Below, one piece after another: positions 3,688 to 49,500 of a DNA stretch of 64,000 bases. The notes under the pieces were generated by a model. The model was not told the origin of the DNA. It did no database searches and saw nothing but the letters and a program-made list of their open reading frames with translations. Positions within the stretch are counted from its first letter, which is position 1. Every line of letters begins with the position of its first letter. The stretch covers positions 96,001 through 160,000 of IMG/VR virus record IMGVR_UViG_3300037042_004723; one strand, written 5' to 3'. This DNA comes from a virus. A program made the position numbers and the translations under genes.

Positions 3688-3691
3688 GAGG

Positions 3692-3973: not shown

Positions 3974-3984
3974 GGAGAATTCAG

Positions 3985-4308: not shown

Positions 4309-4333
4309 TATTTTTGATCAAGGAAATTATACT

Positions 4334-21112: not shown

Positions 21113-21426
21113 AAGCGAAGAATTCTGTCGTTTATGTCACCAGGACAGTCGGGCCAAATCGTGGCCCCACGACTGGGAGCGAAGCTGAAGACGTTATCGC
21201 AGTCCACAAGTTCGAGACTGAGCCTGCAAGGGTGACGGTGGACTATGCGCTGACGATCAATCTTGGGAATTTTGAGTCGGCCAAGATTGGCGTTTCCGTG
21301 AGCGTGCCTTGCTATGCGGAGGAGCTTGACCAGGCTTATGAATTTGCCCAGGCATGGGCAGAGGAACGGCTGACGCGCGAGCGGGACATGATCACGGCTG
21401 GCCGCGTTGGGCAGTCTTCACTCTAG
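21109..21426 (+). CDS. Conserved phage hypothetical protein
   Basis: TINLGNFESAKIGVSV motif; coupled start. Confidence 0.75.
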   Translation: MKAKNSVVYVTRTVGPNRGPTTGSEAEDVIAVHKFETEPARVTVDYALTINLGNFESAKIGVSVSVPCYAEELDQAYEFAQAWAEERLTRERDMITAGRVGQSSL

Positions 21427-21434
21427 GAATATTC

Positions 21435-23471
21435 ATGGCGAAGAAAACCAAAGAAGACGACAAGCCCAAGGTCGCGGATGACCGCGATGAGCAGCTCAGC
21501 GCCTATTTCAAGCAGGCTGAGAAGAACTACGGCAAAGGGGCCGTCCAGTTCGCTATGGATCATGGCCACGAGAACATGCCCAGGATTACTACGGGGATCT
21601 TGCCGCTCGATGTGAGCCTTGGCGGTGGGCTGCCAGTTGGTCGGGTTTCGATGTTCTACGGGCCGAAGTCTTGCCTCGATGCTGGTACATTTATTCAGTA
21701 CGAGGTTCGCGCTAAGGATGGTCGCAGGCAGAATCATAAAGGAGGGACAATTGAGCGACTATTTGCTCGATTCAATGGAGCCCAGGTTGGTGGGAAGGGA
21801 AGCTATCAGCGCAAGGCCTCTGCTGATTCTGAATTCTATGCCAAGTCAGTTGATGAAGACGGACGCATCCTCACGAATAAAATCGAAGGGGTCGTTGATT
21901 CTGGTGACAAAGAATGCTTTGAGCTGGCGTTGACGACTGGCGAAAGCATCATTGCTACAGCAGATCATCGGTTCTTTACAGGATCTGGGTACGTCAGACT
22001 CGGTGACATATCAGTAGGTGACACTGTAACAGTCCAGAAAAGAACCAAGCCGTCATCGGATGCGGAACAGGCTGCATCTCGTCGTTATATGACTGTGAAG
22101 CACCATCCGTTTGCGGCCTCGTATGAGGTTACCCCGGTTAACGAACGGACCAAGACGGTTAGAACTTACAGCTACAAGAAGCTGGCCAAGTCCAGGGCCG
22201 TCGTTGAGGCTGAGATAAATCGTCTTCCGTTTGATCAGTACATTGACGCGCTGAACAATGGAAAGTTCGATGGGTTTGTTTTTCTTGCTCAATCTCAGCA
22301 CGTTCACCACATTGATGAGAACTTTCTTAACGATAGTCTATCCAATCTGATGGTCATCGATAGTTCTTCTCATGGCTTGCTTCATGCCAGGGAAAGTAAG
22401 CTAGGCCTTGGGTATGCTCACGAAGTCAAGGTGGCTTCCATTCGTAGCGTCGGGATCAGGCATACGTATGACATCCAGATGCGAGCGCCGTACAATAACT
22501 TTGTGGCAGATGGGTTTATTGTCCACAATTCGTCCAAGACGACGTGTTTCTTGCGGGCCGTGGGCAGGGCGCAGCGCATGTGTTCGTCGTGCTGGACTCC
22601 GGCATTCCCAATCTGGAAGGTCGATGTATCCGGGTTGAAGCCGAACTGCGAGTGCGGGGACTACCGCAAGGTCAACGTTGCCTGGCTTGATGTTGAGGGC
22701 GTCTGGGATAGCACGTGGTCCCGGAAATTTCTGGACGTGAATCGACTGGTATTTTCGTCTCCTGAGACTGGTGAGCAGGCGTGCGATGTGGCCGATTCCC
22801 TGCTTCGGTCAGGGGCCGTCGATATCATCGTGATCGACTCCGTTGCGTTTATGACGCCCGTCGCCGAGATCGAGCGCTCTTCCTCGGAACCGACCATGGG
22901 CACCCAGGCGAGGCTTCTCGGCAACATGTTCCGTAAGCTGGTCTCCGGCACCAACGCCGTGTCTCAGCGCGACGGCAGGCGTCCGACGGTCTGGTTCACG
23001 AACCAGATCCGCATGAAGATCGGCGTGATGTTTGGCAACCCGGAAACCGTTCCAGGAGGAATGGCCCAGGGCTTTGCGACCTCTACTGAGACTCGGATGT
23101 CGCCGAGCAAGTATCAGGAAGACAAAGAGACCAAAATCATCACGAGCGTGGACATGAAGTTCCGCAACGAGAAGAACAAGACTGGCGTTGCGAAGATGGA
23201 AGGCGAGTACAGGCTTGTCCTCCACGACACCGAGGTAAAGAAAGTCGGCGACGTAATCGACGAGGACTACGCCATGAAAATGGGCCAGCAAACTGGCCTG
23301 ATTCAGCTTGGGCGCGGTCGGGCGTCAACCATCTGGGAAGGTCAGGAGTTCGACGGTCGATCTCTTCTGGAGCGCCACTGGATGATCAACCGAGACGAGT
23401 ATGAGGCGTTTAAGCTCAAGCTGATGAATCACATCAGGACCATCAGCATCGAGCATGAGGCGACCCTTTGA
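21435..23471 (+). CDS. recA: RecA/UvsX recombinase with intein
   Basis: TTGILPLDVSLGGGLPVGRV, DIIVIDSVA, QARL, NQIRMKIGVMFGNPETVPGG, KNK; 392 aa after splicing. Confidence 0.95.
   Translation: MAKKTKEDDKPKVADDRDEQLSAYFKQAEKNYGKGAVQFAMDHGHENMPRITTGILPLDVSLGGGLPVGRVSMFYGPKSCLDAGTFIQYEVRAKDGRRQNHKGGTIERLFARFNGAQVGGKGSYQRKASADSEFYAKSVDEDGRILTNKIEGVVDSGDKECFELALTTGESIIATADHRFFTGSGYVRLGDISVGDTVTVQKRTKPSSDAEQAASRRYMTVKHHPFAASYEVTPVNERTKTVRTYSYKKLAKSRAVVEAEINRLPFDQYIDALNNGKFDGFVFLAQSQHVHHIDENFLNDSLSNLMVIDSSSHGLLHARESKLGLGYAHEVKVASIRSVGIRHTYDIQMRAPYNNFVADGFIVHNSSKTTCFLRAVGRAQRMCSSCWTPAFPIWKVDVSGLKPNCECGDYRKVNVAWLDVEGVWDSTWSRKFLDVNRLVFSSPETGEQACDVADSLLRSGAVDIIVIDSVAFMTPVAEIERSSSEPTMGTQARLLGNMFRKLVSGTNAVSQRDGRRPTVWFTNQIRMKIGVMFGNPETVPGGMAQGFATSTETRMSPSKYQEDKETKIITSVDMKFRNEKNKTGVAKMEGEYRLVLHDTEVKKVGDVIDEDYAMKMGQQTGLIQLGRGRASTIWEGQEFDGRSLLERHWMINRDEYEAFKLKLMNHIRTISIEHEATL
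21672..22529 (+). mobile_element. Intein in RecA (HNH type, 286 aa)
   Basis: GPKS|CLDAGT...TADHRF...HVHHIDENFLNDSLSNL...FIVHN|S. Confidence 0.93.
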
Positions 23472-29703: not shown

Positions 29704-30303
29704 ATGGAGATGATGATGTCGTCGTTGCTAGGCCCAGATGGATTTCCGGTAGGTCAGGTTGGCAGGAGCCAACGCCCAGATCGCCCTGATGGCGAGAAGA
29801 AGGGAATTGACCCAATTGCGATGGAACGTCTCTATGAGATGGTCCAGCAGAGCATGAAGTCCCAAGATGGCCATGCAGTCATCGAGAAGCGCGTGTCGGT
29901 ACATGCTCGAAAGATTGAGCAGGCGCTGCTGTTTTGGAAGCCAATCTATTTCGGTCACTCCAGAGAGGGCCGGCTGCTCAACGGTATTGAGGCGTTTGAG
30001 CTGGGCGACGAGAATCGGACTCCTGACTCTTGCTGGGACAAGGCACCCTACATCGCCATGTGCAACCTTATGGCGCTGGAGGCTATCAAGATGATGGGCA
30101 ACCAGATGCCCACGTCGGAGAAGGGGATCCTCCTCGCTTACGCCTCGGACCGGGAGAAGGGAATCGCCGACTTCTGGAAGAGGATGTTCGCTCCCACAGA
30201 GTTCCAGGCGGAGTGGGCCTGGAAGGCGGTCCTGGCGGTCCTCGCCGGCAACCCTGCTGCATCAGCCGAACTTCTGGATAACTACAGACAGCAGCTGCCG
30301 TAA
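29704..30303 (+). CDS. Hypothetical protein
   Basis: 199 aa followed by a terminator. Confidence 0.7.
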   Translation: MEMMMSSLLGPDGFPVGQVGRSQRPDRPDGEKKGIDPIAMERLYEMVQQSMKSQDGHAVIEKRVSVHARKIEQALLFWKPIYFGHSREGRLLNGIEAFELGDENRTPDSCWDKAPYIAMCNLMALEAIKMMGNQMPTSEKGILLAYASDREKGIADFWKRMFAPTEFQAEWAWKAVLAVLAGNPAASAELLDNYRQQLP

Positions 30304-30331: not shown

Positions 30332-30360
30332 AAGCCCGCGCTCATGCGGGCTTTGTTTTG
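30332..30360 (+). terminator. Intrinsic terminator
   Basis: AAGCCCGC-N6-GCGGGCTT-TGTTTTG. Confidence 0.75.
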
Positions 30361-30381
30361 TCCAGATCTTTGCGTAAAAAT

Positions 30382-30410
30382 TTGCGCGTTTGATCTGTTG
30401 GCAATAGTAT
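30382..30410 (+). promoter_or_regulatory. Sigma70-like promoter of the 30.4-38.8 kb operon
   Basis: TTGCGC-N17-TAGTAT, 8 nt before ATG 30419. Confidence 0.5.
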
Positions 30411-30418
30411 CCGACGGT

Positions 30419-32293
30419 ATGGCAGACGCTATCCCTGGAAAGAAGTCTCGGTGGACCTCTGAACAGGAGGATCTATTGCGTAAGCTATGGGGAACGCAGC
30501 GAGATATCGAACTTGCTAATGTCCTGGGCAAGACGATCAAATCGGTGCGGTCCAAGGCGACCGAGATGAACATTCGCGCCGAGAAGGGCCTCAGGACAGC
30601 ATGCAGGTCTGGTCGCGTATCTTATCCGTGGAGGGCAGACGAAGACCTTGTTCTTGTTAAGAATGTCGGGCACCTCAGCATATTCGAGTTGATGAACCTG
30701 TTGCCTCGCAGGAATCGCTTGGCCATCGAACGCCGTTGCTATGAGCTTGGCTTCTCTCCGACGCAGGGTACTCACACGCGCCTCCAGATAGAACGAGAGA
30801 CCGGATACGACTGGAGACAGATCCAGCGGGCCCGGGACGCTCTGGGTCAGGCTTGGAAGCGATACGGCACCCGCAAGTACATGATAACCTTTGATCAAGT
30901 TCAGGATATCATTGAGTATTTGCGGACCGAGACGAGAAAGTGGTCTCTCCACTACGACTTAGATCGGTGCATTCTTTGTGGAGTCTCTGGAGCTGAAGAG
31001 CGAACCAGGCATTCCGGCGATGGGCTTTGCAAACGATGCGTGAGTGGAGACACCAGGATTATGGTCCGGGGGCGCGGCCTTTTGCGCATTGATGAGATGA
31101 CTGACAGTGGAGAGTTCGAGGTGTGGTCAGGTAAGGCATGGAGGACTACTACGGCGGTGGAGTCTGGCGTTCAACCAGTCGTTGAGGTTCTATTGAATAA
31201 TGGTTCGAGGATCAAACTTACTGGCGATCATCCGATTTTGACTGATTCTGGAATGATTCACGCCCACGTAATCGATAACGAAAGACTTCCATTAGAATTG
31301 CCATCCGATGTCTGCTTTCCGGAAGTTGCCATGATTTCAAGCGTTAATTGGCATAGTGGTGGTCCGCATGAACAATTCCCACGTGAGTGGACTCGTGACG
31401 TAGGAATGTTCCTTGGTGTCGTCCTTGGTGATGGAGCAATGTCAGGTGGAGAATATCCAACGATTATAATTGGCCTCGGCCGGCAGGACAGAGACGACTT
31501 GATTCATCTCCGAGATGTCGTGGGTGGATGGTGCGGATCAAAGTCTCAAGTTGTTGATTTTGAAAGCAGTCCTAACAAATTTTGCGATGAGCATAGGCCG
31601 ATGTCACGCATTCAGTGGAGGGTCAAGTCTCTGATTGAATTCGTTGGGCAGCTTGGATTAGACAAAAGTCTGCCCATCGAGGAACGTCGGGTTCCTTCTT
31701 CTATTTGGACCGCCAGCGCATCAGGCGTTTCCGGTTTCTTGGCAGGACTGTTTGGTACCGACGGTGCTGTCAGTGTTAACGGTGCTGGCAAGATCGAGAT
31801 ATCAATGTCCTCCGTGAGCGCAGGATTGTTGGAAGACGTTCAAAATCTCTTATGTGCTTTTGGGATCAAATCATCGATGTGGTCGTACCCGAAGAAAGAG
31901 CAATATAAGCAACTATTTGCACTTAGTGTCTTTGGTAAGAAGAACGTTGATTTATTTACACGGCGTATAGGCTTTTCTTGTCGGAGGAAGCGGGATGCCT
32001 TGGCGAAGGCGATCTCGGAATCGACCATCGTTGGTCGAGGTAACCGCCATCTCTCCGTTGAGAGTGTTAGGGATGTTGGAGTCGAAAAGGTCTACGATCT
32101 TGTTAACGTGGGGGATGAGCGACAGTTCGTTGCTAACGGTATAAGTGTTTCAAATTGCTGGGATTTCCGTAGGCATGGTCGGGTCCAAGTGCTCGATGCC
32201 CTGCGGAAGGGAAGGGTGATGATTCTGACTGAGGAGATTTGGCACGCTTACATACGCGACGAACCAGAAGTGCGAATCGTTTCTGCAGTTTAG
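30419..32293 (+). CDS. Myb/SANT-like repeat and zinc-finger regulator, interrupted by an intein
   Basis: RWTSEQEDLLRKLW and PWRADEDLVL repeats; CILC...H...GLCKR|C zinc finger; 251 aa after splicing. Confidence 0.8.
   Translation: MADAIPGKKSRWTSEQEDLLRKLWGTQRDIELANVLGKTIKSVRSKATEMNIRAEKGLRTACRSGRVSYPWRADEDLVLVKNVGHLSIFELMNLLPRRNRLAIERRCYELGFSPTQGTHTRLQIERETGYDWRQIQRARDALGQAWKRYGTRKYMITFDQVQDIIEYLRTETRKWSLHYDLDRCILCGVSGAEERTRHSGDGLCKRCVSGDTRIMVRGRGLLRIDEMTDSGEFEVWSGKAWRTTTAVESGVQPVVEVLLNNGSRIKLTGDHPILTDSGMIHAHVIDNERLPLELPSDVCFPEVAMISSVNWHSGGPHEQFPREWTRDVGMFLGVVLGDGAMSGGEYPTIIIGLGRQDRDDLIHLRDVVGGWCGSKSQVVDFESSPNKFCDEHRPMSRIQWRVKSLIEFVGQLGLDKSLPIEERRVPSSIWTASASGVSGFLAGLFGTDGAVSVNGAGKIEISMSSVSAGLLEDVQNLLCAFGIKSSMWSYPKKEQYKQLFALSVFGKKNVDLFTRRIGFSCRRKRDALAKAISESTIVGRGNRHLSVESVRDVGVEKVYDLVNVGDERQFVANGISVSNCWDFRRHGRVQVLDALRKGRVMILTEEIWHAYIRDEPEVRIVSAV
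31037..32155 (+). mobile_element. Intein (LAGLIDADG, 373 aa) ending Ser-Asn
   Basis: KR|CVSGDT...LTGDHPI...LGVVLGDG...FLAGLFGTDG...ANGISVSN|C. Confidence 0.93.
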
Positions 32294-33316: not shown

Positions 33317-33619
33317 ATGGCGCCCAAGGTCGACAAGCCGTCGCTACTCCCTGATGACATCGTTGGGGATGCCCGCAGGATTAGGATGATTAGCATCGAC
33401 CCGGCTACCGGCGACGACAAGTCGATCGTTGGAGAGGCGTGGCAGGATGCGACCGGCAAGCTGCATGGCACCGGCATCGCTGGCGTGATGTTGTTTGAGC
33501 CAGTATCGATGGCCAAGTATCGCATGGCGTCTATTGCTAAGGATTTGTCTCCTCTTTCTATCTTCTATTCCAGGATAGCTAGAAGTTCATTTATCAGAGT
33601 TGAGCTGGTGAAAAAGTGA
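33317..33619 (+). CDS. Small kinase-coupled protein 1
   Basis: 100 aa; paralogous to 35255 (RI.MI...GD...AWQ.A.G.L...GI). Confidence 0.7.
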   Translation: MAPKVDKPSLLPDDIVGDARRIRMISIDPATGDDKSIVGEAWQDATGKLHGTGIAGVMLFEPVSMAKYRMASIAKDLSPLSIFYSRIARSSFIRVELVKK

Positions 33620-35265
33620 CCAGAGAACTTGATGAAAAGTTTGGCTCCCAATTGACCAGGGTGCTGAAGAAGGTTAATCGCAAGGACGGGGACGGCGGAA
33701 CCAAGACGGTTGACCAGGCGTTCCATGTCCGCAAGGCTGCTCCAGGCGATCGGTATGCAGCATTCAAGACTCTTGAGTCAAGGACGGCCGAAGGACCAGG
33801 CGCAGCAGGTGCTGAAATGTCAAATCCGGAAGAACAGCCCGCAGATCAGGCAGACGGCTCGCAAGATCCCACGCAGCAGCCAGACGAGTCGCAGGAACCT
33901 GTGCAGCCGGCGCCCGTTGTCAGAATAATGGTTAGGCGTCTCGATATTCCATGGCTCAAGAAGGGTGACAAAGCCAGGGAGAAGGCTAAGGCCCTGGCCA
34001 GGGATCCAATTTCGCCAGAATTGAGGCAGCGTTTCAAGAAGGGCAGCGGTTCGATTGCTATGTCGAACCCGGCCGTCACCGGCCTTCCGATCACCACGGT
34101 TGTGCCGACAGACAGGATCTTCTGGGGGGCTGACGAGCCTGGCTTGCTTGTGTCGCTGCGTTCCGGGACCATCAGGAAGATGCGCTTGGTCGGTGGCAGT
34201 AATGGCTTGATGATAATCAAGATCGAGGCCATCGGAGGCGGGTCCTTCTACGGGTATATGTGGATGGAGTCCTTGCGATGCTCTCTCCTGAAGCAAATCT
34301 GGGGAGATATCATAGATTTTTCTGATCCAGATGGCCCGCTTTCCAAGAGGGCTGCATGTTCGTATGAAACCGCTAAGGCTTGCGGATTGGACGATCTAAC
34401 TCCGCCGACCGTTCATCGCGTGGACGACGATGGCGACATCAGATCTATGCTTCCGGATTCTCTTATCGAGCAAGCCAACGAATGGGTGTCCACGACGTCC
34501 GGCATTGATCCTGATGCGGTCAAGAGCGGCATCAGCGGTCATGCGACCGTCCAGCTCGTTCGTGGTGAGCCATGGCCAATTGAATCAGAGGAGTGGTTCA
34601 GGGACCTATTTGGAAGCGGCGATCCGTCGGCCCTGAATGACATATGGTCGTCTATGCCTCCGGATCGCAGGATCGGCTTGTTGCGGTTGGCTGCACTCGA
34701 TTTCGTTACCGGGTCACTGGATAGGTCTTTCGGCGATCTGGTGTTTTCGGATGATCCAAGACATCCAGTTGTTGCGTATGGCGGCGAGATGTCAATCCCC
34801 TGTCCAAGGACGATTGGGATGGCGTATGCCAGCGGAGGTTACGCTGGATATCTGGATAACGAGTCTGCCAATCTACCGCTTTTCTGGAGCGAAGCGTCGA
34901 CCATGCTGGCGGTTCGTGGCGGAGATCGGGAGATTGACGACTACGAGTTGATCGGGATAGCAATCGCGTCGCGGATGAAAGAAAACCGAGCCGTAGAATT
35001 GGCGAGGTCACTTCATGACCACAAGCTAACTGCGCTCCAAATCTCTGGGATTTTGAGTCGCATCTGGATGATGAATACTCATTCAAGGGACATCGCCAAG
35101 GATCCGTACCTGGCGGCCAGGTATTACGCATCGATTGTTTCCGGGCAGGCCGATCCATTGATGGACGGAGTGAAGGACTTTGTAAACAATACAATGCGGC
35201 AGGTCCTGGTCGGAAAATTTGACTTCTATAAGGTCATGAAGTCGGGGGCAGAGGATGCTGCTTGA
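33616..35265 (+). CDS. PI3/4-kinase/HipA-like fold protein, predicted pseudokinase
   Basis: KRAACSYETAKACGLDDLTPPTV and LDFVTGSLDRSFGD; the IDHG position reads AYGG. Confidence 0.7.
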   Translation: MTRELDEKFGSQLTRVLKKVNRKDGDGGTKTVDQAFHVRKAAPGDRYAAFKTLESRTAEGPGAAGAEMSNPEEQPADQADGSQDPTQQPDESQEPVQPAPVVRIMVRRLDIPWLKKGDKAREKAKALARDPISPELRQRFKKGSGSIAMSNPAVTGLPITTVVPTDRIFWGADEPGLLVSLRSGTIRKMRLVGGSNGLMIIKIEAIGGGSFYGYMWMESLRCSLLKQIWGDIIDFSDPDGPLSKRAACSYETAKACGLDDLTPPTVHRVDDDGDIRSMLPDSLIEQANEWVSTTSGIDPDAVKSGISGHATVQLVRGEPWPIESEEWFRDLFGSGDPSALNDIWSSMPPDRRIGLLRLAALDFVTGSLDRSFGDLVFSDDPRHPVVAYGGEMSIPCPRTIGMAYASGGYAGYLDNESANLPLFWSEASTMLAVRGGDREIDDYELIGIAIASRMKENRAVELARSLHDHKLTALQISGILSRIWMMNTHSRDIAKDPYLAARYYASIVSGQADPLMDGVKDFVNNTMRQVLVGKFDFYKVMKSGAEDAA

Positions 35266-35509
35266 TAATCGCAGGCTTCGGATCAGCATGATCAACATGG
35301 TGAACGGCGACATGGTCTCGACTCATGCTGCCGATGCATGGCAGGAGGCGGACGGAACGCTTTCTGTGAGTGGTATTTGGAGTGATTTGATTCCTGCCTC
35401 CAAGGAAGACCACGTTCTCATGGCCGAAGCCGCCGGTGTGTCATCGCTGGAATGGCTCCGTCGTCGTTTGCTTACATGTCCAATGATAGCTATGGAGATC
35501 TTTGATTAA
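35255..35509 (+). CDS. Small kinase-coupled protein 2
   Basis: 84 aa; paralog of 33317. Confidence 0.7.
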   Translation: MLLDNRRLRISMINMVNGDMVSTHAADAWQEADGTLSVSGIWSDLIPASKEDHVLMAEAAGVSSLEWLRRRLLTCPMIAMEIFD

Positions 35510-37158
35510 TGTTGAAAAGAAATTCATGGATTGACACGGTCCAGCTGCTGCGTGCCGGTCAATTGAAGGAGATCATGCTGGAGACGACCGAACTGGCGAG
35601 GCCTGGCAATATTGGCCAAGCTGCTCTTGCCCAGCAGGCCGCTCAGGCCGCTCCAGCCCCGCAGGCCGCTCCAGACCCGCGCCTGGCTATGCCGTCACCA
35701 GGCGCCCCAGATCCACTGGCCGCCCAGGCGCCGCCAGCGCAGCAGCAACCGGCTTGGGCCAAGTGGGGGGCTGTTCCGGGGAAGACCGAGCTGCATAGTA
35801 CCGAACCAAGCTTGGCGTCGAGAACCAGGCCGGACTTGGCCCAACCAGCCGAGCGTCACTCGTCTTTTCATAAGGCATATCACGACAAGGCAGCGACTAA
35901 TAAGTCACTGGCCAGACTCATGTCCGCCGGCAACGTCAATCTCGTTTATCATGGACAATTAGACAGCGGGCACAATTATATAGCTAAGCCAGTATCCGGC
36001 ATGTGGCACCGTCACCAAAAGACTGGCCAGATGGATCCGTATACTCTGAATCAGTACACGCAAGATCAGCCGAACATGGCCAATCGCCATGACGCGACAT
36101 ACGAATTGATGTCGGCCATGGGGGCTCATCATATGGTTACGCCAGGCATGCAGACGAATATGCATCAGCGTCATCAGTTTGGAGGCCCGGATCCGGACCC
36201 GAATGCGGATAAATTTCAGCGCAGGGAAATGGCCAGCGGCGTTGCTGGCGAATCTGCTCACGTAAATGAGTTCGTGCCCGGACTGGTGATGGCGGGAAAA
36301 TCTTCTAGTGGAGAGCTAGGCAAAGTTGACGCAGAGCATCGTCTTCATGGAATGGTTGCCCATTTGCTTTTTGGTAATCAGGATGGACACCATGAAAATG
36401 TGATGATTCATCAGAAGACCGGCCACCCGGTACTGATCGACCACGACATGGCGCTGGATTCCGTCAATTCCCGTGGAAACATGATGAGGTACGGCGCTCA
36501 CTCGGTTAAGTCAGTATTCTCGCCGGGGGGCATCCTTGACTATCAGGCTAAATTGCCCAGGGATAGTAACGGTCAAATAATTCCAGTTGGGAAAAATTAT
36601 CCGCCCAGGATGAGAGAGGTGCTCGATAGAGTTGCCGACGGCTATTATACCGAGGGGCCTGGTAAGTTAAACCTGTCACCGGGAGATCACGCAGACCTCC
36701 AGCATCACGCCCGCGACTTGCTGACCCATGGCCTTGAGGACACCCTTGATAGAAGAGTTGACATTTACAACCCGCATAAGGCGAAGAAGGCCGCTCCGGC
36801 GAAGAAGGCCGCTCCGGCGGCAGTAGCTCCGGCGAAGAAGGCCGCTCCGGCGGCAGTAGCTCCGGCGAAGAAGGCCGCTCCGGCGGCAGTAGCTCCGGCG
36901 AAGAAGGCCGCTCCGGCGGCAGTAGCTCCGGCGGCAGTAGCTCCGGCGGCAGCCGCTAAGGCTCTTAAGCAGCGTAAGAAGCCGGAGCCGCGAAAGCGTC
37001 CCCCGGTGACAGAGAAACCGGCAGCACAAGCCAAGGCGCCGTTGCACCACGGGTCGGTTCAGCGAGCACTTGACGATATCAGGGTTAAGCCGGACAATTC
37101 TGTTCAGAGGGCGCTCAAGGGCATCAGGTTCAGCGCGCCTGGCAAGGGGAAAAAGTAG
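35509..37158 (+). CDS. PI3/4-kinase/HipA-like kinase with intact motifs and a Lys/Ala/Pro-rich tail
   Basis: YIAKP lysine, FGNQDGHHENVM catalytic loop, VLIDHD metal-binding motif. Confidence 0.78.
   Translation: MLKRNSWIDTVQLLRAGQLKEIMLETTELARPGNIGQAALAQQAAQAAPAPQAAPDPRLAMPSPGAPDPLAAQAPPAQQQPAWAKWGAVPGKTELHSTEPSLASRTRPDLAQPAERHSSFHKAYHDKAATNKSLARLMSAGNVNLVYHGQLDSGHNYIAKPVSGMWHRHQKTGQMDPYTLNQYTQDQPNMANRHDATYELMSAMGAHHMVTPGMQTNMHQRHQFGGPDPDPNADKFQRREMASGVAGESAHVNEFVPGLVMAGKSSSGELGKVDAEHRLHGMVAHLLFGNQDGHHENVMIHQKTGHPVLIDHDMALDSVNSRGNMMRYGAHSVKSVFSPGGILDYQAKLPRDSNGQIIPVGKNYPPRMREVLDRVADGYYTEGPGKLNLSPGDHADLQHHARDLLTHGLEDTLDRRVDIYNPHKAKKAAPAKKAAPAAVAPAKKAAPAAVAPAKKAAPAAVAPAKKAAPAAVAPAAVAPAAAAKALKQRKKPEPRKRPPVTEKPAAQAKAPLHHGSVQRALDDIRVKPDNSVQRALKGIRFSAPGKGKK
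36781..36945 (+). repeat. Perfect coding tandem repeats (AKKAAP x5, AAVAP x5)
   Basis: 18-nt GCGAAGAAGGCCGCTCCG and 15-nt GCGGCAGTAGCTCCG modules in the order K K A K A K A K A A, all identical. Confidence 0.95.
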
Positions 37159-37464
37159 ATGAAATTTTTGATTACGTCATCGGTTGAGACGGGCAGGGTT
37201 GATCAGATTCTGTGGAAGGAAGGGGATATCGTCGTGTCCAAGACGCTGTACAGAGACGGCACCCAAGAAAAGAGGACAACCTATCACGCTACGTTGTTTG
37301 ATGCCGCCGGAGAAATGGGCAACGGGTACAGCAGCTCTCGCCTTGTGGATGTTGCTGATGTTAGGTCTGCGGAGAAGTATCTAGGCAAGTCGTCCGACTT
37401 GGTCAATGCATTGCCGGAGCAGGACATTTATGCCCCCGACGAGCCAAGCATCAACGCTTCGTAG
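37159..37464 (+). CDS. Small protein 3, upstream of the third kinase-like gene
   Basis: 101 aa; abuts the previous stop. Confidence 0.65.
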   Translation: MKFLITSSVETGRVDQILWKEGDIVVSKTLYRDGTQEKRTTYHATLFDAAGEMGNGYSSSRLVDVADVRSAEKYLGKSSDLVNALPEQDIYAPDEPSINAS

Positions 37465-38767
37465 TGTATTCGGGGCCCTTTCCCAAAATCCGCCAGGCCT
37501 GTCAGCGCGACTAAACGACAAGCCTTCCATAGACGATACAACACCAGCTCTCGACGAGCTTCCGGCAACCCCTGTTCTTCATGAGAAGACCGGGGTTGTC
37601 TTGTTGCCGGCCGCCAGGATCGATGGCTCGGTTACCGATTCGTCATGGAGCATCGGTGAGCCAGCCCTCTGGACTTGGCTACGCACGGCTCCAATTGAGC
37701 ATCTTGAGGAGCGAGTACAGGATGGACTAGGTGGGTCGTTTTGGGTTCGATGTCGGAACCAAGAAGGAGAGCTGCGAAGTGCTGTTCTTCGTTTTGATAC
37801 CGTTGGATTTGATACGATTTATGAGGCATGGGGCCAGGAATATGGCCTTTCCGTCGAGAACCATGACGTCCTAAGACGCGAGCAGGCTGCTTACGAGATT
37901 GCCAAGGGGATCGGATGCGAAGATCTGCTGCCTCCGATAGCCATCAGAGAGGCGAATCTTGTTCCTTTGATTTCCGATGCAGTCAGGGACAAGGTTGCCG
38001 CCGAGCTTGGTATCGATCAGATACTCGTGGACGAGACGTTTGGCGTCATTGCCGCACTGCAGGCGACTCCGTTAAACGCCCGCAATTTTGTCGAGTACTG
38101 GGCGACCCTGGGGCCAGATGCCACCAACAGGTGGGCGAGGTCGTCAAGCGCACTCAGGCACGGCCTTTATCGAATGATTGCTTTGGACTTTGTGCTCGGA
38201 ACTGGAAATCGATCGCTGGCCGACTTTCTCTTCAATGAGGCTTCCGGGTCGGTGGTTGCCTATGGATTTGGTGTAACCCTGCCAAGTCCGACTGCTACAG
38301 CGGATGGATATCTTGCCCATAGAGCGCGCGGATGGGGCAGGCGACTCGCTGGTCCACTCGAAGAGCCAGCCCCTGGTTCCCCACCGTTTGGATCTGACAC
38401 GTCATTCCTGATTCATGGATTTGGCGATCGTGAGCGGGCCGAATGCTTGATGACGTTCAAGCAGATGTCCAAGGCTGCCGACGAGACGATCGTAGGACTT
38501 TTGTGTCGAATCATGATCGAGGTCGGCGTTCCGGTTGAACACGTTGCGGGCTTTGTCGCTAGGCTTTCCTTCCTTCAGGAAGATCCAGAGTCGGTTATCA
38601 GTAACCAATTCGACTTCGTCAGAAGCATCCTGGTTCCGATGCGGCGTGGTTACGGATTTGAGGCTGGGCGCAACGCCAAGATGGTCGAAACCGTCAATCA
38701 GATCATGACGACGGCATCCGGCCAGGAGTACGACTTCGCTTCTGCGATGCAGGCCCAGCAGGGATAG
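37430..38767 (+). CDS. PI3/4-kinase/HipA-like fold protein, predicted pseudokinase
   Basis: RREQAAYEIAKGIGCEDLLPP and LDFVLGTGNRSLAD (catalytic D to N); AYGFG; paralog of 33616. Confidence 0.72.
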   Translation: MPPTSQASTLRSVFGALSQNPPGLSARLNDKPSIDDTTPALDELPATPVLHEKTGVVLLPAARIDGSVTDSSWSIGEPALWTWLRTAPIEHLEERVQDGLGGSFWVRCRNQEGELRSAVLRFDTVGFDTIYEAWGQEYGLSVENHDVLRREQAAYEIAKGIGCEDLLPPIAIREANLVPLISDAVRDKVAAELGIDQILVDETFGVIAALQATPLNARNFVEYWATLGPDATNRWARSSSALRHGLYRMIALDFVLGTGNRSLADFLFNEASGSVVAYGFGVTLPSPTATADGYLAHRARGWGRRLAGPLEEPAPGSPPFGSDTSFLIHGFGDRERAECLMTFKQMSKAADETIVGLLCRIMIEVGVPVEHVAGFVARLSFLQEDPESVISNQFDFVRSILVPMRRGYGFEAGRNAKMVETVNQIMTTASGQEYDFASAMQAQQG

Positions 38768-39668: not shown

Positions 39669-42600
39669 ATGGCCATCAGGGATCTTGGTGGGAGAGTTCG
39701 CAGCGAGCAGACGAAGGACGAGGTGCTTCGTCTGCTGAGGACTGAATTTGCGAACCTGAGCGACGAAGAAAAGCAGGCGGTGATGCTCTGCCTGAAGGAG
39801 CTTGATGACCCGGCGTTCAACGACATGGAGGCCAATGGGGAGGTCGCCCCTACGAGGATCTACGATGTCTTGACCGAGGCTGAATATATTCGCAAGCCAG
39901 TCGACATCGAGACGTTCGTCAGAGATCCATATTATCTCGGGAAGACCTGCGATGTTCTCTATCCGAAGCTTCTCGACGATATGAAGGAGCTGTTTGGCGG
40001 TCACTACCGAGAGACCATCCTGAGCGGTAGCATCGGTTGGGGGAAGTGCCTGGATTCATTGACAGAACTATATAACACGAAGACCGGGAGGCGAGAGCTT
40101 ATTTCCGACGTATCGGACCTTGGCGTCGCCTCGATGGTCGACGGGGGCGGAATAGAGCCCAGGGATGCGTCCTGCTTCAAGTCGGGCAGGAAGCGGTGCG
40201 TCAGGGTTGCGCTGGCCGACGGGAAGTCGATCGTTGCCAGCAACGACCACAGAATCTTCACTGCGCGAGGGTGGGTGGGGGCGTCTAAGCTTGGCTGTGA
40301 CGACTTGGTCGCCACTCCAAGGAAGCTGCCAGATCCGGACTCAACAACCGACGTTGCCGATTCCGTTGTGAAGCTGGTGGCGTACCTGTTGGCCGACGGA
40401 GGGTGTACCGGGCCGACGACGTTCACCAACGCCTGCGAGGATGTACTTGTTGAGTTCTGTGAGCTTGTCAACGAGCTTGGCGACAGCTCTCAGTATGACA
40501 AGTGGCACCGGCACATAGAGACTGGTGTTGCCATCGTCGATGATGGCAACAGCGGGATGGCCCTGACACTGAGGGCTAGTGGGGTCAGGCACCTGGTTAC
40601 AAGGTACGGGTGTGACAAGAAGTCGATCGACAAGCGTATTCCTGCCGAGTTCTATGGGTTGCCAAGGAACCAGGTTGCTCTCTTTTTGAACCGATTCTGG
40701 GCGTGCGACGGGTCGTTTTCCGTGGCATCGCCCAGGAAGGTTGAGATTGGGCTGGGATCCGAGGGGCTCGTAGATGACTTGATGTTCTTGTTGCTTCGCC
40801 TTGGGATTCAGTCGCGCAAGTACTACAAGAAAAAATCTTGCACTTACAAGGGAGAGAAGAAGTGGTTCGACTCGTGGTGCCTTACGGTAACGGACAGGGA
40901 TGGCATCATTAGCTTTCTGGACGCCGTTGGACCAGTGGTTGGCAAGGTCGATAAGTGCATGGCGCTGCGTGCGGCGTGCGAGGCCGTCAAGTCGAATCCG
41001 AACTGCGATGTTGTTCCGGTTGGCAATGCGGAGCTGCTTGAGATAAGGTCTGAGCTTGGCTCTCGTGGCGGAGGGCTTTCCGCTAGGTTTGGATGTCCAG
41101 AGGGGCAGCTGTTCTCTCGCCAGCGATTTGAGAAGCTTTGTTCTGAGTATGAGTACGTCGGCAAGTATTCGTGGCTGGCCGGGTCGGATATCTACTGGTC
41201 GAAGATCAAGGAGGTCGTCGATGTTGGAGACCGCGATGTCTACGACCTGACGGTCCCAGGTACCGAGAATTTTGTTGCGAACAACATAGTGGTTCACAAC
41301 AGTTTCTTTGCGTCCATCGCAGCCTGTCGGATCATCTACGAGCTGTCGTGCATGCGAGATCCGCACAAGAGCTTCGGCATCGGTAAGGGCACCGACATCA
41401 CGATGGTCGTTCTTTCTGTCAAGGAAGACCTAGCGATCAAGGTCGCCTTCGAAAACATCGCAAATAAGATCAAGGAAAGCGATTATTTCAAGGAGAACTT
41501 CCCCTTCAAGCCGATGAAGAAGGAGATCATCTTCCCCAGTAAGATCCAGATCGCAGCTCGTGCCTCAACGGATAGCGCAGCACTCGGTCTCAACGTCTTC
41601 GCGGCTTGGATTGACGAGTCCAACTTCATGCAGCCCATGAAGAAGAAGGGCGGGATCGAAAGTCGCGTCGGGAACATGGATCGAGCCCAGTTCCTCTACG
41701 ACCAGCTTATTCGTCGTATGAAGTCTCGCTTCCAGCGCCACGGCAAGTTGCCAGGCATGATGATCGTGGTGTCGTCGAAGCAGACGCGCGATGACTTCAC
41801 GGCCAAGCGGATCAAGGACTCCAAGGACGACCCAACCGTCTTCGTTCGCGACTATGCAACCTGGCACGTGAAGCCGGATGGGATTTACTCCAAGGAGACG
41901 TTTTATGTCCTCGTGGGAAACGACTTGGTCCCGTCTAAGGTCCTCACACCTGAGGAGATCGACGTCACCAGGGATAAGCTACAGGACGGGATGCTCATCA
42001 TTGATGTCCCTATCGACTTCAAGAACGATTTCACGAGCAATATCGAAGACTCCATTCGAGACATTGCCGGCGTCGAGACGGTTTCGGTGTCGCCGTTTAT
42101 CCAGCAGCGAGATCTGATCATCCCGTGCATCGACGTTAATCGTCAGCATCCGTTTACCGTTGAGGAGTGGGTCCCCACCGAGCACGGAAAGTTCGTGTGG
42201 TCGAGGCTGGCCAGACAGGTGGAAGTCCGCGACGGCGCTTCGATTAGTCGAGAATGGCAGCCGTTGTTTCACCAGGGCGCCGCCAGGCATATTCACATCG
42301 ATCCATCGCTCAACTCCGATGCGACCGGGTTCGCTGTTGGCTGTGTCACTGGGTACAAGACGGTCGTTCGCCGTGACGAGGAGACGCGCGAGCAGTACAC
42401 AGAGCGAGCCCCTGAGATCTGGGTAGACTTCATGCTTCGCATCAAGCCTCCCATTGGGGGCGAGATTGATCACGGTCTTGTTCGGTCGCTCGTCTATCAG
42501 ATGCAGGCTAAGGGGTTTTCGATCAGCCTAATCACGATGGACCAGTTCAATTGCCTAGTTGCCGGTACGATGGTGCCTACGGCACGCGGGATACTGCCGA

Positions 42601-44060
42601 TCGAGCAGGTCGTTGTCGGGGACATCGTTCAGTCGCGCATCGGTCCTCGTCCGGTCGAGAACACCTGGAACTACGGGGAGAGGGAGACGATCAAGATCGT
42701 CACTCAGGATGGCGATGTTCTTGAGGGGACGCCGAATCACAGGATTGAGATCCAGGTTGGGTGGACCAAGGAGCACCAGAACGAGTACGGGTGGACGAGG
42801 GACCCTGTCTGGGAGTGGAAAACGCTGTCCGAGCTGTCGGTGGGCGATGTGGTCCACATGGCCGATCAGCCGGTCTCCCTTGACCCGCCGGACGTAGAGC
42901 TGAGCGGGTGCAAGGAAGACTTCGGGTGGACGAGTCCGCGTGGCCTGATCGGCAACTGGACGCTGCCGTCAAAGATGACGCCTGAATTGGCCGAGTTCCT
43001 TGGCCTGCTGTGGGGCGACGGCGACGTCTCTGACAAGCTGATCAGGCTGACGTTCCACGTGGACGACACGGAGGACGTCCAAGCGAAGTTCATTGGCCTT
43101 TTCGGTGAATGCCCAGCTGTCGAGGTTAGTCGTCTGACGGACAAATGCGCGTCCGTTCGTTTTGGATCCACGTGGGTGTGCCGATGGATGGCGCACAACG
43201 GCCTGGTCAAGCCGACGATCCCTGATGCCGTCATGCGTTCAAGCAAGGCAGTCAAGTCGGCGTTCCTAAGGGGACTTTTCTCTGCCGACGGCGCGGTCAG
43301 CAAGATTGACGGAGAGATCTCTCTGGGAACGTCGGTGAGATGCCTCGCTGAGCAGGTGCGGCTAATTCTCCGCGCCGACTTTGGGATTGAGAGCTGCCTG
43401 GTGACCACGGAGAAGAAGTACAAGAGCCAGCAGGCGATGCCAGGGTGGCACGGTGGGCTTCACTACGTAGTGTCCGTTCGTGGCCCCAGGAGGCGGTTCC
43501 AGGAGAGAGTCGGGTTCTGCTATCGGGGCAAGTCAGAGATGCTGGCGAGACATGTCGAGGTGAATGGGCGCCGCAAGTTCTCGAAGATTGTCGACATCGA
43601 GCATGGGTTCGGAGAGGTGTTCGACATTCAGGTTGCAGACGACCCGTCGTACATCGCGAATGGGTTCGTTTCGCACAATTCGGCAAGCTCTCTGCAGACA
43701 TTTGCCACTAAGGGAATTACGGCCGAGCGCCTGTCCGTAGATAAGCCGATGGATGCGTACGATATCCTTAAGACAGCTATCTACGAGAACAGGCTCAGCT
43801 TCTACGGATACAATCCGTTGCTTGAAGAGTTGCGGTGGATCCAGAAAGACAACATCCGCAACAAGGTGGACCACCCACAGGGCAAATCCAAGGATCTCGC
43901 GGACGCCCTGGCTGGTATCGTCTTCTCGTTGACGACGATGTATCACGGCCCCCCGATGGGGGTGTACAAGGGGATATCGCAGTTCAATGACCCGGTAGCC
44001 GAGGAACAGCGAGAGATCGTAGAAGAGGACTTCCCCCTGCTACCTTTTCTGCAAGGATGA
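39669..44060 (+). CDS. terL: Terminase large subunit with two inteins
   Basis: Walker A GSIGWGK|S, Walker B AWIDES, nuclease HIHID, MDQ, DHP..KSKDLADA; 669 aa after splicing. Confidence 0.93.
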   Translation: MAIRDLGGRVRSEQTKDEVLRLLRTEFANLSDEEKQAVMLCLKELDDPAFNDMEANGEVAPTRIYDVLTEAEYIRKPVDIETFVRDPYYLGKTCDVLYPKLLDDMKELFGGHYRETILSGSIGWGKCLDSLTELYNTKTGRRELISDVSDLGVASMVDGGGIEPRDASCFKSGRKRCVRVALADGKSIVASNDHRIFTARGWVGASKLGCDDLVATPRKLPDPDSTTDVADSVVKLVAYLLADGGCTGPTTFTNACEDVLVEFCELVNELGDSSQYDKWHRHIETGVAIVDDGNSGMALTLRASGVRHLVTRYGCDKKSIDKRIPAEFYGLPRNQVALFLNRFWACDGSFSVASPRKVEIGLGSEGLVDDLMFLLLRLGIQSRKYYKKKSCTYKGEKKWFDSWCLTVTDRDGIISFLDAVGPVVGKVDKCMALRAACEAVKSNPNCDVVPVGNAELLEIRSELGSRGGGLSARFGCPEGQLFSRQRFEKLCSEYEYVGKYSWLAGSDIYWSKIKEVVDVGDRDVYDLTVPGTENFVANNIVVHNSFFASIAACRIIYELSCMRDPHKSFGIGKGTDITMVVLSVKEDLAIKVAFENIANKIKESDYFKENFPFKPMKKEIIFPSKIQIAARASTDSAALGLNVFAAWIDESNFMQPMKKKGGIESRVGNMDRAQFLYDQLIRRMKSRFQRHGKLPGMMIVVSSKQTRDDFTAKRIKDSKDDPTVFVRDYATWHVKPDGIYSKETFYVLVGNDLVPSKVLTPEEIDVTRDKLQDGMLIIDVPIDFKNDFTSNIEDSIRDIAGVETVSVSPFIQQRDLIIPCIDVNRQHPFTVEEWVPTEHGKFVWSRLARQVEVRDGASISREWQPLFHQGAARHIHIDPSLNSDATGFAVGCVTGYKTVVRRDEETREQYTERAPEIWVDFMLRIKPPIGGEIDHGLVRSLVYQMQAKGFSISLITMDQFNCLVAGTMVPTARGILPIEQVVVGDIVQSRIGPRPVENTWNYGERETIKIVTQDGDVLEGTPNHRIEIQVGWTKEHQNEYGWTRDPVWEWKTLSELSVGDVVHMADQPVSLDPPDVELSGCKEDFGWTSPRGLIGNWTLPSKMTPELAEFLGLLWGDGDVSDKLIRLTFHVDDTEDVQAKFIGLFGECPAVEVSRLTDKCASVRFGSTWVCRWMAHNGLVKPTIPDAVMRSSKAVKSAFLRGLFSADGAVSKIDGEISLGTSVRCLAEQVRLILRADFGIESCLVTTEKKYKSQQAMPGWHGGLHYVVSVRGPRRRFQERVGFCYRGKSEMLARHVEVNGRRKFSKIVDIEHGFGEVFDIQVADDPSYIANGFVSHNSASSLQTFATKGITAERLSVDKPMDAYDILKTAIYENRLSFYGYNPLLEELRWIQKDNIRNKVDHPQGKSKDLADALAGIVFSLTTMYHGPPMGVYKGISQFNDPVAEEQREIVEEDFPLLPFLQG
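40047..41300 (+). mobile_element. TerL intein 1 (LAGLIDADG, 418 aa)
   Basis: GK|CLDSLT...SNDHRI...VAYLLADG...FWACDG...IVVHN|S. Confidence 0.95.
42552..43679 (+). mobile_element. TerL intein 2 (LAGLIDADG, 376 aa)
   Basis: FN|CLVAGT...TPNHRI...LGLLWGDG...LRGLFSADG...FVSHN|S. Confidence 0.95.
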
Positions 44061-46550: not shown

Positions 46551-49500
46551 ATGGGATTTTGGGGACAAGTCGGAGACCGCGTTCGCGGTTTATTGCGTTT
46601 CGATAAAGAGCAGGTAGTCCTTAATCTTGCCAAGGGCGGGTCTGCCTCTGGCTATCCGCAGACTGGGTTTGATCTCCTCCAGTCGTACGGCCAGGACGTC
46701 CTCAGCGACTACCTCAAGCTCGAACATGACCTGATGGCCAGGTTCGTTGACTACGAGGAGATGGACGACTATCCGGAGCTGGCGTGCCTAGACGGGGACA
46801 CTCTCGTTTTCACACTGGAATACGGGTGGGAGGCGATCCGTAGCCTCGCCGCGAGAGGTGGAGACTTTCACGTTCTCGCCTATGACCGTGAGAGCAAGTC
46901 CCTGGTTCCGGCGATGGCGCGGAACGCTCGTGCCACGGGTGCGGCTGGGCACAGCAAGCAGATGGTCAGAGTTGTCATGGACAACGGGCAGGCAATCGTT
47001 TGCACGGCTGATCATATGTTCTTCTCCAAGGAGGAGAACTGGATTCAGGCTTCTGGCTTGCGGGCCGGGCAGAGGCTAATGCCGGGGGTTCTTCGGTCAA
47101 GGAGCCTGAACGGTGACTCGGATGGCTCCTACTGGGAGGTTCACCAGCCGAATAGCGACTCGGTTATCAGAACTTCCGATGGGAAGCGCTGGACGTGGGT
47201 TCATCGCCTGGTGGGAGAGATGATGCTGGGAGCCGGGCGCGGAGATATCGTCCATCACAAGGATGAGAATTCCCTTAACAACGCCCCAGACAATCTGAGC
47301 GTGGAAACATACAGCAGCCATGCTGGCGTCCATATCGCCAGGATCAACAATTCATCATATCTGCCTGAATGGAATGACGAGCGCAAGAGAGCTAAGTCAT
47401 TGGCGATGCTTGGCAATTCGCATAGAATTGGCAAGCGCGACAGCGCGGAGACTCGCGCTAAAAAGTCGGCGGCTCGTGCAGGTCGGCCGCTCACGGATGA
47501 TCATCGCCGAAAAATTGGCGACGCTCACCGGGTTAGCTTTACTCGTGAGCAAGTGGAGTCGGCCTACAGGAGTGGCGGGTCTGTCGCCGAGGCGGCGAGG
47601 ATTCTGGGCGTGTCGTGGGGTACGGCTCGCCGGAACCTTGATCGCTATGACCTAATTGTTGACGATGGGAATCACCGCGTAGTTCGCGTTGAGTTCCTCG
47701 ATGATCGTCCCGAGATTTTCGATCTTGAGGTTCCTGGCTATCACAACTTTGTCTGCAATGGCGTTGTTGTTCATAATTCAGCCATCGATATTTATGCCGA
47801 CGACGCGACGCAAACGGAGTCGCTTCAGAACAAGGTCGTTTGGATCGATAGTCCAGACAAGACCGTTCAGATGATTCTGGAAGATCTTCTCTGGAAGAGA
47901 CTTCGCATCGACGAGGAGGTCTGGGAGATCACCCGGACCCTGGTCAAGTACGGCAACGACTACGAGGAGCTTCTCGTAACCGGTGACGGTCTGGTTGGCC
48001 TCAATTTCCTGCCTCCTCCCACGATGCGTCGAATCGAAGGCCGGCGTGGGGAGTTGTTTGGATTCGTCCAGGACTACAAGGGGCGCTTCGGATACAGCCC
48101 TGAGGAGTTCAAGCAGCTATTGACCCAGCGTGCGGCTGGTGGGAATAGCCCGCAGAACAAGTATGCCGCCCTTGAGGATTGGGAGGTCTCCCACTTCAGG
48201 CTGAGGTCGAAGCATCGTCGGTCGATCTATGGGTACTCGGTCCTTGAGCCAGCTCGTTGGATCTGGAAGCGCCTTATGCTTCTTGAGGATGCAGCGATGG
48301 TCTATCGACTGCAGCGCGCTCCGCAGCGGTACGCCTTCTATATTGACGTTGGCGATATGCCGCCGAAGGAAGCGATGGGCTTCCTTCATAAGATGCGTCA
48401 GCAGTACAAGAAGACTAAGTTTTACAATCCGCAGTGCCTGACCGGCGAAACCTGCGTGACGTTGCTGGATGGCACCGACAAGAGCATGTCGGAGCTTGTT
48501 CGCGACTACGCTGACAAGACGTTCGACGTGTTCTCCTACGATTTGGAGACCGGTCGCGTGGTGCCGGGCAAGGCCAGAAACCCTCGCCTGACCCATGAGC
48601 AGGCGCCGATCTGGCGGGTGGTGTTGGATAACGGTTCCGTCGTGCGCTGCACGGGGAATCACCCGTTCCTGATGAGGGACGGTGAGTACAAGGCTGCCAA
48701 TACGCTCGCGTCCGGCGATTCCCTGATGCCGCTGTACATGTCACGCGGGTCGAAGGGCACGCATGGCTACTGGATGTATCAGGAGCCTGGAACCGGCCAG
48801 CGCAAGCATGTCCATCGGATGGTCGCGGAGGCTGTATGGCCAGATATGGCTGCGGCGAATATGCAGGTTCATCACGTTGATCACAACAAGGCCAATAACG
48901 CCCCCGGGAACCTGCAGTGGCTGACCGCGTCCGAGCATGCGCTGCATCATCCTGAGCGCCATCAGGCCGCGCGAGCTGCCTACGTCAAGCGCGTCAAGAA
49001 TGATGAGGCGTTCAGGCGCGAAATCGCAGGGCGAATCTCCAACTGGCGCAAGACAAAGCCTGACGAGGCGTTCGCGGCGACGTCGAGCCACAGCAAGCAG
49101 ATCATGGCCGACCGGGTGGCTTCGGCCAAGCCGGCTCACGATGCCATGATGGTCATCATCGAGGGCGAGGTCGTTAGAGATCCGCTCGTGGTTATCGAGG
49201 AACTCGCCGACCGGCTCAACGCGAACGATGAGTTCGCTAAGCTCTACGCTGACCTTCCAACCACAAAGAATTCGACAATCACAGGCGGATGCCTGCACGC
49301 ATTCTTGCGTCGTCATGGTTTTGACGGCTTCAAGGACTTCAAGAACAAGAAGACCAATCAGGCTCGGTGGAGAAATCGCACATACGGCAAGGAGGTCACC
49401 GAAGGCACGGAGGCGCACAACCATAAGGTCGTTAGCGTTTCATTCGAAGGATACGAGGACGTCTATAATATGGACGTCGAAAAGTATCATAATTTTGCCC

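Follow-up and report, generated by a model that had tools for sequence, protein, structure and literature searches.

A predicted class-1 intein divides a C-x-x-C motif in a Myb-like DNA-binding protein of a large phage

Introduction

Does an intein that sits between two conserved cysteines of a DNA-binding protein make that protein answer to metal or redox conditions, or is it a mobile element that settled in a residue its host can hardly do without? The question is raised by one gene, at positions 30419-32293 of a 64-kb stretch (the window) of a 197-kb virus record (IMG/VR record IMGVR_UViG_3300037042_004723). This gene is predicted to encode a Myb-like DNA-binding protein, and its coding sequence is interrupted by an intein. 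An earlier note on this DNA had placed the intein inside a zinc-finger C-x-x-C of a Myb-like regulator heading a kinase operon, and had suggested that splicing could act as a metal or redox switch for that regulator. Our analysis of the gene, its homologues and its intein relatives makes us fairly confident of another reading, namely that a selfish mobile class-1 LAGLIDADG intein parasitises a conserved, probably essential DNA-binding protein of a T4-like large phage. In the literature searched, the insertion site and the host are previously undescribed: no report of an intein in a phage transcription factor of the Myb or zinc-finger type turned up, which is no proof of novelty.

Results

An exact in-frame intein precedes a conserved cysteine

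The reading frame is intact across 624 codons, from the ATG at 30419, a start kept among homologues, to the TAG at 32291-32293. Its product of 624 amino acids (aa) consists of two exteins and an intein, inserted between R and C of ...HSGDGLCKR|CWDFRR, and the spliced extein is 251 aa long. The clearest view of the junction comes from proteins that have no intein. Fifty-nine intein-free homologue clusters span it without a gap as ...CK-x-CWD..., and the nearest allele, P0001, whose extein is 91% identical, is among the intein-free ones and reads ...HSGDGLCKRCWDFRRHGRVQVL uninterrupted. Because such homologues cross the junction without a gap, the insertion is exact and in frame. Together with the intein motifs, they confirm that a C-x-x-C pair is split at HSGDGLCKR|CWDFRR, as had been proposed from the window alone. 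The search for intein-free alleles also brought out four other carriers, all with the intein at this same site.

The inserted segment has the hallmarks of a class-1 intein: Cys1, Cys +1, the T-x-x-H of block B, a terminal Asn and the exact in-frame insertion. Pfam LAGLIDADG_3 (PF14528) matches it at 55.4 bits against a cut-off of 22.5. In a search of PDB sequences, the two ends match the Spl DnaX mini-intein (E 0.0018) and the middle matches the endonuclease domain of PI-PfuI. The five intein-bearing alleles agree in Cys1, the block-B T-x-x-H, the block-F Asp, the terminal Asn and the +1 Cys. In their alignment blocks A, B, F and G do not vary, and both LAGLIDADG motifs (..LGDGA.. and ..FGTDGA..) retain their Asp in four of the four full-length alleles. 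The Ser-Asn end that had drawn attention in the window is a constant feature as well, Ser standing in place of the penultimate His in 5/5 alleles. This His is common, not obligatory, in inteins (PMC4031507).

The intein is indeed AT-richer than its flanks. Its guanine-cytosine (GC) content is 48.7% (47% at third codon positions, GC3), versus 54.2% (GC3 62%) for the N-extein and 57.3% for the genome, which places it within the lowest 0.5% of equal-sized genome windows. Recent acquisition was considered as the cause and dropped. All three Myb-site inteins examined (31037-32155 of the window, 3601-4731 of locus L030, and that of locus L034) lie 5-6 GC points under the exteins around them, and the phages concerned differ in GC (45-54% in the exteins). 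Since all three share it, the low GC is a lineage trait and gives no date for acquisition.

In the public protein set, this gene appears as the miscalled 410-aa entry P0064, which starts from a Met within the intein (residue 9). Automatic annotation therefore missed the intein-containing gene as a whole.

The alleles fit a homing cycle

The intein is present in 5 of 64 homologue clusters, always at the identical junction. Three of the other carriers (P0061-63) have full-length inteins and the fourth (P0060) has a 146-aa mini-intein without an endonuclease; all four end VSN|CWD. Among the alleles, the inteins are 44-62% identical, versus 62-76% for the N-exteins. The motif also occurs in 26 related loci, metagenomic or viral, and the intein is missing from every one of them.

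In a quick tree of the exteins, that of the window falls in a 13-row clade in which the rest are intein-free. The other three full-length carriers lie together in one 15-row clade, with a support of 91 in the Shimodaira-Hasegawa approximate likelihood-ratio test (SH-aLRT). The same 15-row clade contains all nine variants with a residue other than Cys at the fourth position of the cysteine motif (P0041, P0043, P0046-48, P0050 and P0053-55), and in locus L031 (1443-2159) TGC has become GAC exactly at the insertion point. Such variants may be endonuclease-resistant alleles, or they may just mark a ligand position that tolerates change; resistance is speculative. Overall, the allele pattern fits a homing cycle with invasion, decay and, as a matter of speculation, resistant targets.

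The +1 cysteine is a probable zinc ligand

We examined the host protein in an AlphaFold2 (AF2) model of P0001 (predicted local distance difference test, pLDDT, 80.7) and compared its domains by VIA-align, a tool for which a Z below 8 is middling. The C-terminal part of the model contains C-x2-C-x16-C-x2-C followed by a long helix. The +1 Cys supplies the fourth Cys of this C4 motif and stands at the head of the predicted C-terminal helix (P0001 residues 205-223), and the second Cys pair begins a helix in both models. C184, C187, H198 and C204 are invariant in 55 aligned homologues, and three distant homologues of 25-30% identity still have the His and all four Cys. Of the 59 intein-free clusters, 50 have Cys at the fourth position and 6 have Asp; Glu, His and Asn occur once each.

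Structural neighbours of the finger are weak and mostly C4 treble-clef zinc modules, including GATA, LIM, the zinc-binding domain (ZBD) of ClpX, ZAD, FYVE and RING. Superposition on GATA1 gives a root-mean-square deviation (rmsd) of 1.6 A across 31 residues at a Z of 2.4, which is not significant. By range arithmetic, the four Cys presumably coincide with the ligand positions of the GATA1 N-finger. We consider a four-Cys zinc site probable, though not proven, with the +1 Cys as its last ligand. The proposal that the +1 Cys doubles as the last zinc ligand thus stands as far as its place in a conserved C-x2-C-x16-C-x2-C goes, but the fold matches are weak and the position is not invariant. Similarly, the joined extein models as a finger to the extent that its second Cys pair opens a helix, but its resemblance to C4 treble-clef fingers is weak.

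The same residues can be read in another way, in which the +1 Cys is no zinc ligand, the site is C2-H-C (C184, C187, H198, C204) or metal-free, and the intein merely adjoins it. H198 is invariant like C184, C187 and C204, even at 25-30% identity, and the fourth Cys is replaced in 9 clusters. The pLDDT of the finger region is just 57-81, and no Pfam zinc-finger family reached its threshold, a lenient search giving only sub-threshold matches to DZR_2, RecO_C, Ribosomal_L36 and Myb. On the other hand, the replacements are mostly potential zinc binders (D, E, H) restricted to one clade, the fourth Cys is kept in all three distant homologues, and the spacing, with a helix that opens at the second pair, is as expected for C4 treble-clef fingers. 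We regard the C2-H-C or metal-free site as unlikely, though it deserves to be kept in mind.

Two phage primase-like proteins, P0100 and P0118, have a LAGLIDADG intein directly ahead of the C-F-A-C of a DnaG-type CHC2 zinc ribbon. Since these more distant primase inteins share the arrangement, the Myb-site gene is not alone in having a probable metal ligand as its +1 Cys.

Related inteins occupy C-x-x|C junctions of other phage proteins

A full HMMER search with the intein as query gave 43 representatives at E 1e-30 or better. Besides the Myb-site alleles, the best matches are inteins in phage GP88 proteins of 690-870 aa and in longer two-intein forms of up to 1281 aa. The GP88 identity comes from Pfam (PF17338) in seven and from phrog_1392, a family of unknown function, in one more. 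Two further matches lie in proteins resembling phosphoadenosine phosphosulfate (PAPS) reductase (PF01507, phrog_424). A literature search on PF17338 found no publications describing GP88- or PAPS-site inteins. Searching the genome of the window for PF17338 gave no match, a result of little weight since the controls gave none either. The closest inteins are 38-51% identical across their full length, with 38-48% for those of the GP88- and PAPS-site set (P0065-P0097, metagenomic; loci L032, L033 and L035).

The junctions of these relatives read ..IC-x-x|intein|CYA.. and ..DC-x-x|intein|CY... Across 35 junctions, from matches with E below 1e-45, Cys stands at -3 in 31 and at +1 in all 35, and the intein ends Ser-Asn in 20. 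Twenty-four more distant inteins have Cys at -3 in three cases and a His-Asn end in 23. Both the Ser-Asn end and the division of a C-x-x-C are thus traits inherited within the clade, being common to intein relatives in other phage proteins. In some GP88 proteins a further Cys is preceded by a second intein, with the form ..KM[LK]|C..HN|CPT[WF]DL.

The intein tree unites the four full-length inteins of the Myb site in one clade (SH-aLRT 100), which lies within those of the GP88 site; the two from the PAPS site make up another nested clade (SH-aLRT 90). From this tree, the Myb site looks like one ectopic colonisation. Shared target DNA was considered as an explanation for a jump between host genes and rejected as sufficient, with 8-11 of the 20 central nucleotides (nt) matching.

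The host is a conserved multi-domain protein of large phages

'Myb-like DNA-binding protein' is a reasonable name for the host on the evidence of the model. VIA-align matches residues 6-52 to the GcrA DNA-binding domain 5yiu_A (47 aa at 32% identity; Z 6.8, rmsd 1.4 A). Residues 66-113 align with c-Myb R2 1mbg_A (Z 6.2, rmsd 2.0 A), with c-Myb R2R3 matching at Z 6.5 across 99 aa, and the segment 117-174 is similar to the winged helix of pSK1 Par/RacA/MerR (Z 8.4, rmsd 1.1 A). The first repeat is matched by phrog_323 ('transcriptional regulator', E 2e-8), and Atlas neighbours include Myb families at 0.88-0.89. A tblastn search of the N-extein against phage records gave only a 32% match, to Myb-like proteins of SPbeta-like Staphylococcus phages. 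Foldseek with the whole model found nothing at E 0.001 or better, and no curated Pfam family reached threshold for the host protein. The label 'Myb-like' carried over from the earlier note is upheld by structure-level and weak sequence evidence, but the Pfam Myb/SANT profile PF00249 stays well under its cut-off in P0001 (E 1.1, 9.8 bits against 24.4). That the protein acts as a 'regulator' we infer.

The intein-free clusters and the fetched viral and metagenome loci derive from large phage contigs of up to ~298 kb. Megablast of the 9 kb around the gene found no match among phage records. The group is one of large T4-like phages that are uncultured. Wherever the flanks of a relative reach far enough, the gene order is kept: genes for 321, 157 and 199 aa, this gene, 71 aa, a ParB-like nuclease, 100 aa and 549 aa. 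Within this syntenic block the host gene is the best conserved (70-88% identity versus 31-95% for its neighbours), outdoing them in all but very few single comparisons, and the insertion point lies inside its most conserved peptide, RHSGDGLCKxCWD. The host protein is probably essential.

The features of the gene and its upstream region are collected in Table 1. The start at 30344 given by the program that listed open reading frames (ORFs) was dismissed: its ATG falls within the terminator hairpin, and homologues start at the equivalent of ATG 30419.

Table 1. Positions of the gene's parts and of the signals in front of it, in window coordinates
Feature	Position	Strand	Description	Basis
Terminator-like hairpin and T-run	30332..30361	+	9-bp stem with 6 GC pairs, TGTTTTG tail; hairpin proper 30332-30353; ends upstream gene 29704-30303	
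Promoter-like region	30372..30410	+	imperfect palindrome GCGTAAAAATTTGCGC (30372-30387) containing TTGCGC (30382-30387); 17-nt spacer; TAGTAT (30405-30410)	
N-extein, 206 aa	30419..31036	+	Myb/GcrA-like repeat 1 (~6-52), Myb-like repeat 2 (~66-113), MerR/RacA-type winged helix-turn-helix (HTH) (~117-174)	
N-extein cysteine stretch CILC	30968-30979	+		coordinates from sequence
N-extein cysteine stretch RHSGDGLCKR	31007-31036	+		coordinates from sequence
Class-1 intein, 373 aa	31037..32155	+	starts CVSGDTRI, ends ...FVANGISVSN	five-allele alignment, Pfam
Intein Cys1	31037-31039	+		sequence
Intein block B	31217-31243	+	LTGDHPILT	sequence
LAGLIDADG motifs	31409-31441 and 31736-31771	+		sequence
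Intein blocks F/G	32087-32155	+	KVYDL...ANGISVSN	sequence
C-extein, 45 aa	32156..32290, stop to 32293	+	starts CWDFRR; +1 Cys 32156-32158	

The TAGTAT box lies 8 nt ahead of the ATG. Upstream of the homologous gene in 7 related loci (among L001-L008), the palindrome (consensus GCAAATATTTGC) and a TAGnAT box are both kept, the box 8-10 nt before the start codon and the palindrome overlapping a -35-like box. The palindrome motif is found once in the whole 197-kb genome, and a generic sigma-70 scan did not list the promoter-like region. Palindrome and box may be the gene's own promoter or operator and give a nearly leaderless transcript.

Downstream of the gene follow the 71-aa ORF and then the ParB-like nuclease, and a terminator scan saw no terminator in the 1.4 kb behind it. 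Its position at the head of a kinase operon, as the earlier note had it, survives in part: a terminator precedes the gene and the next 1.4 kb behind it have none, but the kinase call is sub-threshold and concerns a protein three genes beyond the ParB-like nuclease. That protein (35509-37158, 549 aa) matches PI3_PI4_kinase below cut-off (E 0.001, 19 bits versus 27) and has DGHHEN...IDHD and an Ala/Pro-rich repeat tail. A second protein of 549 aa (33616-35265) and one of 453 aa (37406-38767), which lie on either side of it, are distant paralogues with ~24% identity.

Seven further inteins lie in the window (12039-14645, 21354-23471, 39669-44060 and 46551-51689), and seven of the seven end His-Asn. 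They interrupt the P-loop of a DnaB-like helicase (GVGK|C...HN|T), a RecA-like P-loop, a terminase-like protein (two inteins) and a T4-type portal (three inteins). The terminase-like protein, of 1463 aa, has the first of its two at Walker A GWGK|C, and two of the three in the portal have HNH domains.

Discussion

The intein is sporadic, has an apparently intact endonuclease and a relative decayed to a mini-intein, and shares its 64 kb with seven others, all of which leads us to read it as a selfish element. It directly precedes the fourth Cys of the predicted finger and would take this residue as its +1 splicing nucleophile. In the precursor, 373 residues lie between the third Cys on one side and the fourth Cys with its helix on the other, and because of this separation the mature finger would form only after splicing joins ...CKR to CWD.... 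The site would have been reached once, through an ectopic jump from a lineage living in C-x-x|C-Y motifs of phage GP88-family proteins. Afterwards the intein would have spread or persisted among alleles by homing, and one lineage would have lost its endonuclease. Within this scheme, zinc binding and the direction of the jump are what we infer.

Several points weigh against this account. Splicing, homing and endonuclease cleavage are predicted from motifs. The Pfam Intein_splicing profile (PF14890) gives E 4.6e-6 and 27 bits, under its cut-off of 35.8, which close intein relatives exceed. Besides the penultimate His, the common block-F His is absent (ERQF, not HNF). As for the finger, the C-terminal domain in isolation had no significant fold match (Foldseek E above 2; VIA Z at most 2.9). 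As for the jump, most 'GP88' labels were assigned from the junction motif, with eight proteins checked by Pfam or PHROG, and the nodes that place the Myb-site inteins within the GP88-site ones have SH-aLRT values of 84-88, in a quick tree with distant inteins as its root. Target DNAs of the three host genes, alike at those 8-11 of 20 central nt, have little in common beyond TGY-n6-TGY-T.

A conditional-splicing switch that the phage puts to use would explain the cysteines differently. In the precursor, the intein Cys1 stands in for the fourth Cys and completes the C-K-R-C1 spacing, with C204 at -3 and C184 and C187 nearby. Zn2+ chelation by C184/C187/C204/Cys1, or a C204-Cys1 disulfide, would block step 1 of splicing, and the DNA-binding protein would be held back until zinc or redox conditions change. 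In keeping with such a switch, there is a Cys at -3 and there are three zinc-ligand cysteines just upstream of Cys1; the clade retains a Cys at -3 in three hosts that are unrelated to one another, so that this residue may matter to the intein; and Ser substitutes the penultimate His that normally assists the final splicing step. Both modes have published parallels. The P. abyssi MoaA intein is kept from splicing when an N-extein Cys is disulfide-bonded to Cys1 (Callahan et al. 2011, as related in the review PMC10663303), and in M. smegmatis DnaBi1, Zn2+ on the initiating Cys reversibly blocks splicing (PMC7360933). Divalent cations and active-site disulfides are general inhibitors of splicing (PMC4031507).

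Against this, 59 of the 64 homologue clusters, the closest allele included, manage without the intein, so the phage group needs no such switch. The intact endonuclease motifs and the mini-intein are those of the usual selfish homing cycle, and the seven other inteins of this phage sit in ordinary sites. The bacterial cytoplasm, moreover, is reducing and very low in free zinc. By analogy with the known cases, a zinc or redox switch is chemically plausible; its use by the phage is a proposal, and one that we consider improbable. We are just as sceptical of its extension to the whole clade, in which inteins with Ser-Asn, Cys -3, Cys1 and Cys +1 would be specialised for C-x-x-C metal motifs, their precursors would be gated by zinc or redox state, host activation would be delayed and the Cys-to-Asp variants would be homing escapees. 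Finally, one could take the intein for non-functional and this phage's copy of the gene for a pseudogene. That idea has the missing penultimate and block-F His and the sub-threshold Intein_splicing score in its favour, but we give it hardly any credence: the 624-codon frame is intact, the nucleophiles and the block-B T-x-x-H are identical in five diverged alleles (44-62% intein identity), which argues for purifying selection, Ser-Asn ends occur in 20 of 35 clade junctions, the host gene is the most conserved of its block, and inteins without the penultimate His can splice (Chen, Benner and Perler 2000; Sun et al. 2005, both as listed in PMC4031507).

Read as a selfish mobile element, the intein extends the catalogue of inteins by one insertion site and one host, a multi-HTH DNA-binding protein with a probable zinc finger, outside the usual replication, recombination and packaging hosts; in this respect the host is as unusual as the earlier note supposed. 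The most interesting by-product of the analysis is the C-x-x|C habit of the clade. C-x-x|C junctions in two other phage protein families were reached by at least two separate moves, and since chance would rarely place Cys at -3 twice, the splicing chemistry or the endonuclease of the clade appears to favour C-x-x|C sites. The clade is thereby a natural test bed for the debated idea of inteins as metal or redox sensors, and offers compact Cys-flanked inteins for protein engineering. If splicing is constitutive, the Myb site is simply another case of inteins targeting indispensable residues.

Comparison with known systems brings out what is ordinary and what is particular here. Canonical class-1 LAGLIDADG inteins, such as PI-PfuI (PDB 1dq3) and the mycobacteriophage terminase inteins (PMC5050341), have the same Cys1, T-x-x-H, terminal Asn, +1 Cys and two LAGLIDADG motifs; they likewise hit the most conserved peptide of an important gene and occur sporadically, beside intein-free and mini-intein alleles. 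Here, however, the host is a Myb/HTH zinc-finger protein and not an ATPase, polymerase or reductase, Ser replaces His, and a C-x-x-C is split. The GP88- and PAPS-site inteins share the C-x-x|C-[YW] junction, the frequent Ser-Asn end and the endonuclease type; they differ in their host proteins and in a GC content equal to that of their exteins, whereas Myb-site inteins lie 5-6 points lower. GATA-type and other C4 treble-clef fingers resemble the predicted finger in C-x2-C-x16-C-x2-C (x17 in GATA) and in the second Cys pair at the start of a helix, but the finger described here has an invariant His before the third Cys, a fourth ligand that varies in one clade, and no family membership. The 'redox trap' of MoaA also has an N-extein Cys near Cys1 and able to bond with it, which here belongs to a native C-K-R-C1; the MoaA Cys, too, reportedly lies at -3. 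Unlike MoaA, our host is a phage DNA-binding protein in which the neighbouring cysteines are probable zinc ligands. In the zinc-inhibited inteins (DnaBi1, PMC7360933; Mtu RecA and Ssp DnaE, in PMC4031507), a catalytic Cys is likewise available as a metal ligand, but there the binding is adventitious and uses residues of the intein, whereas here the extein would provide a three-Cys partial site right beside Cys1.

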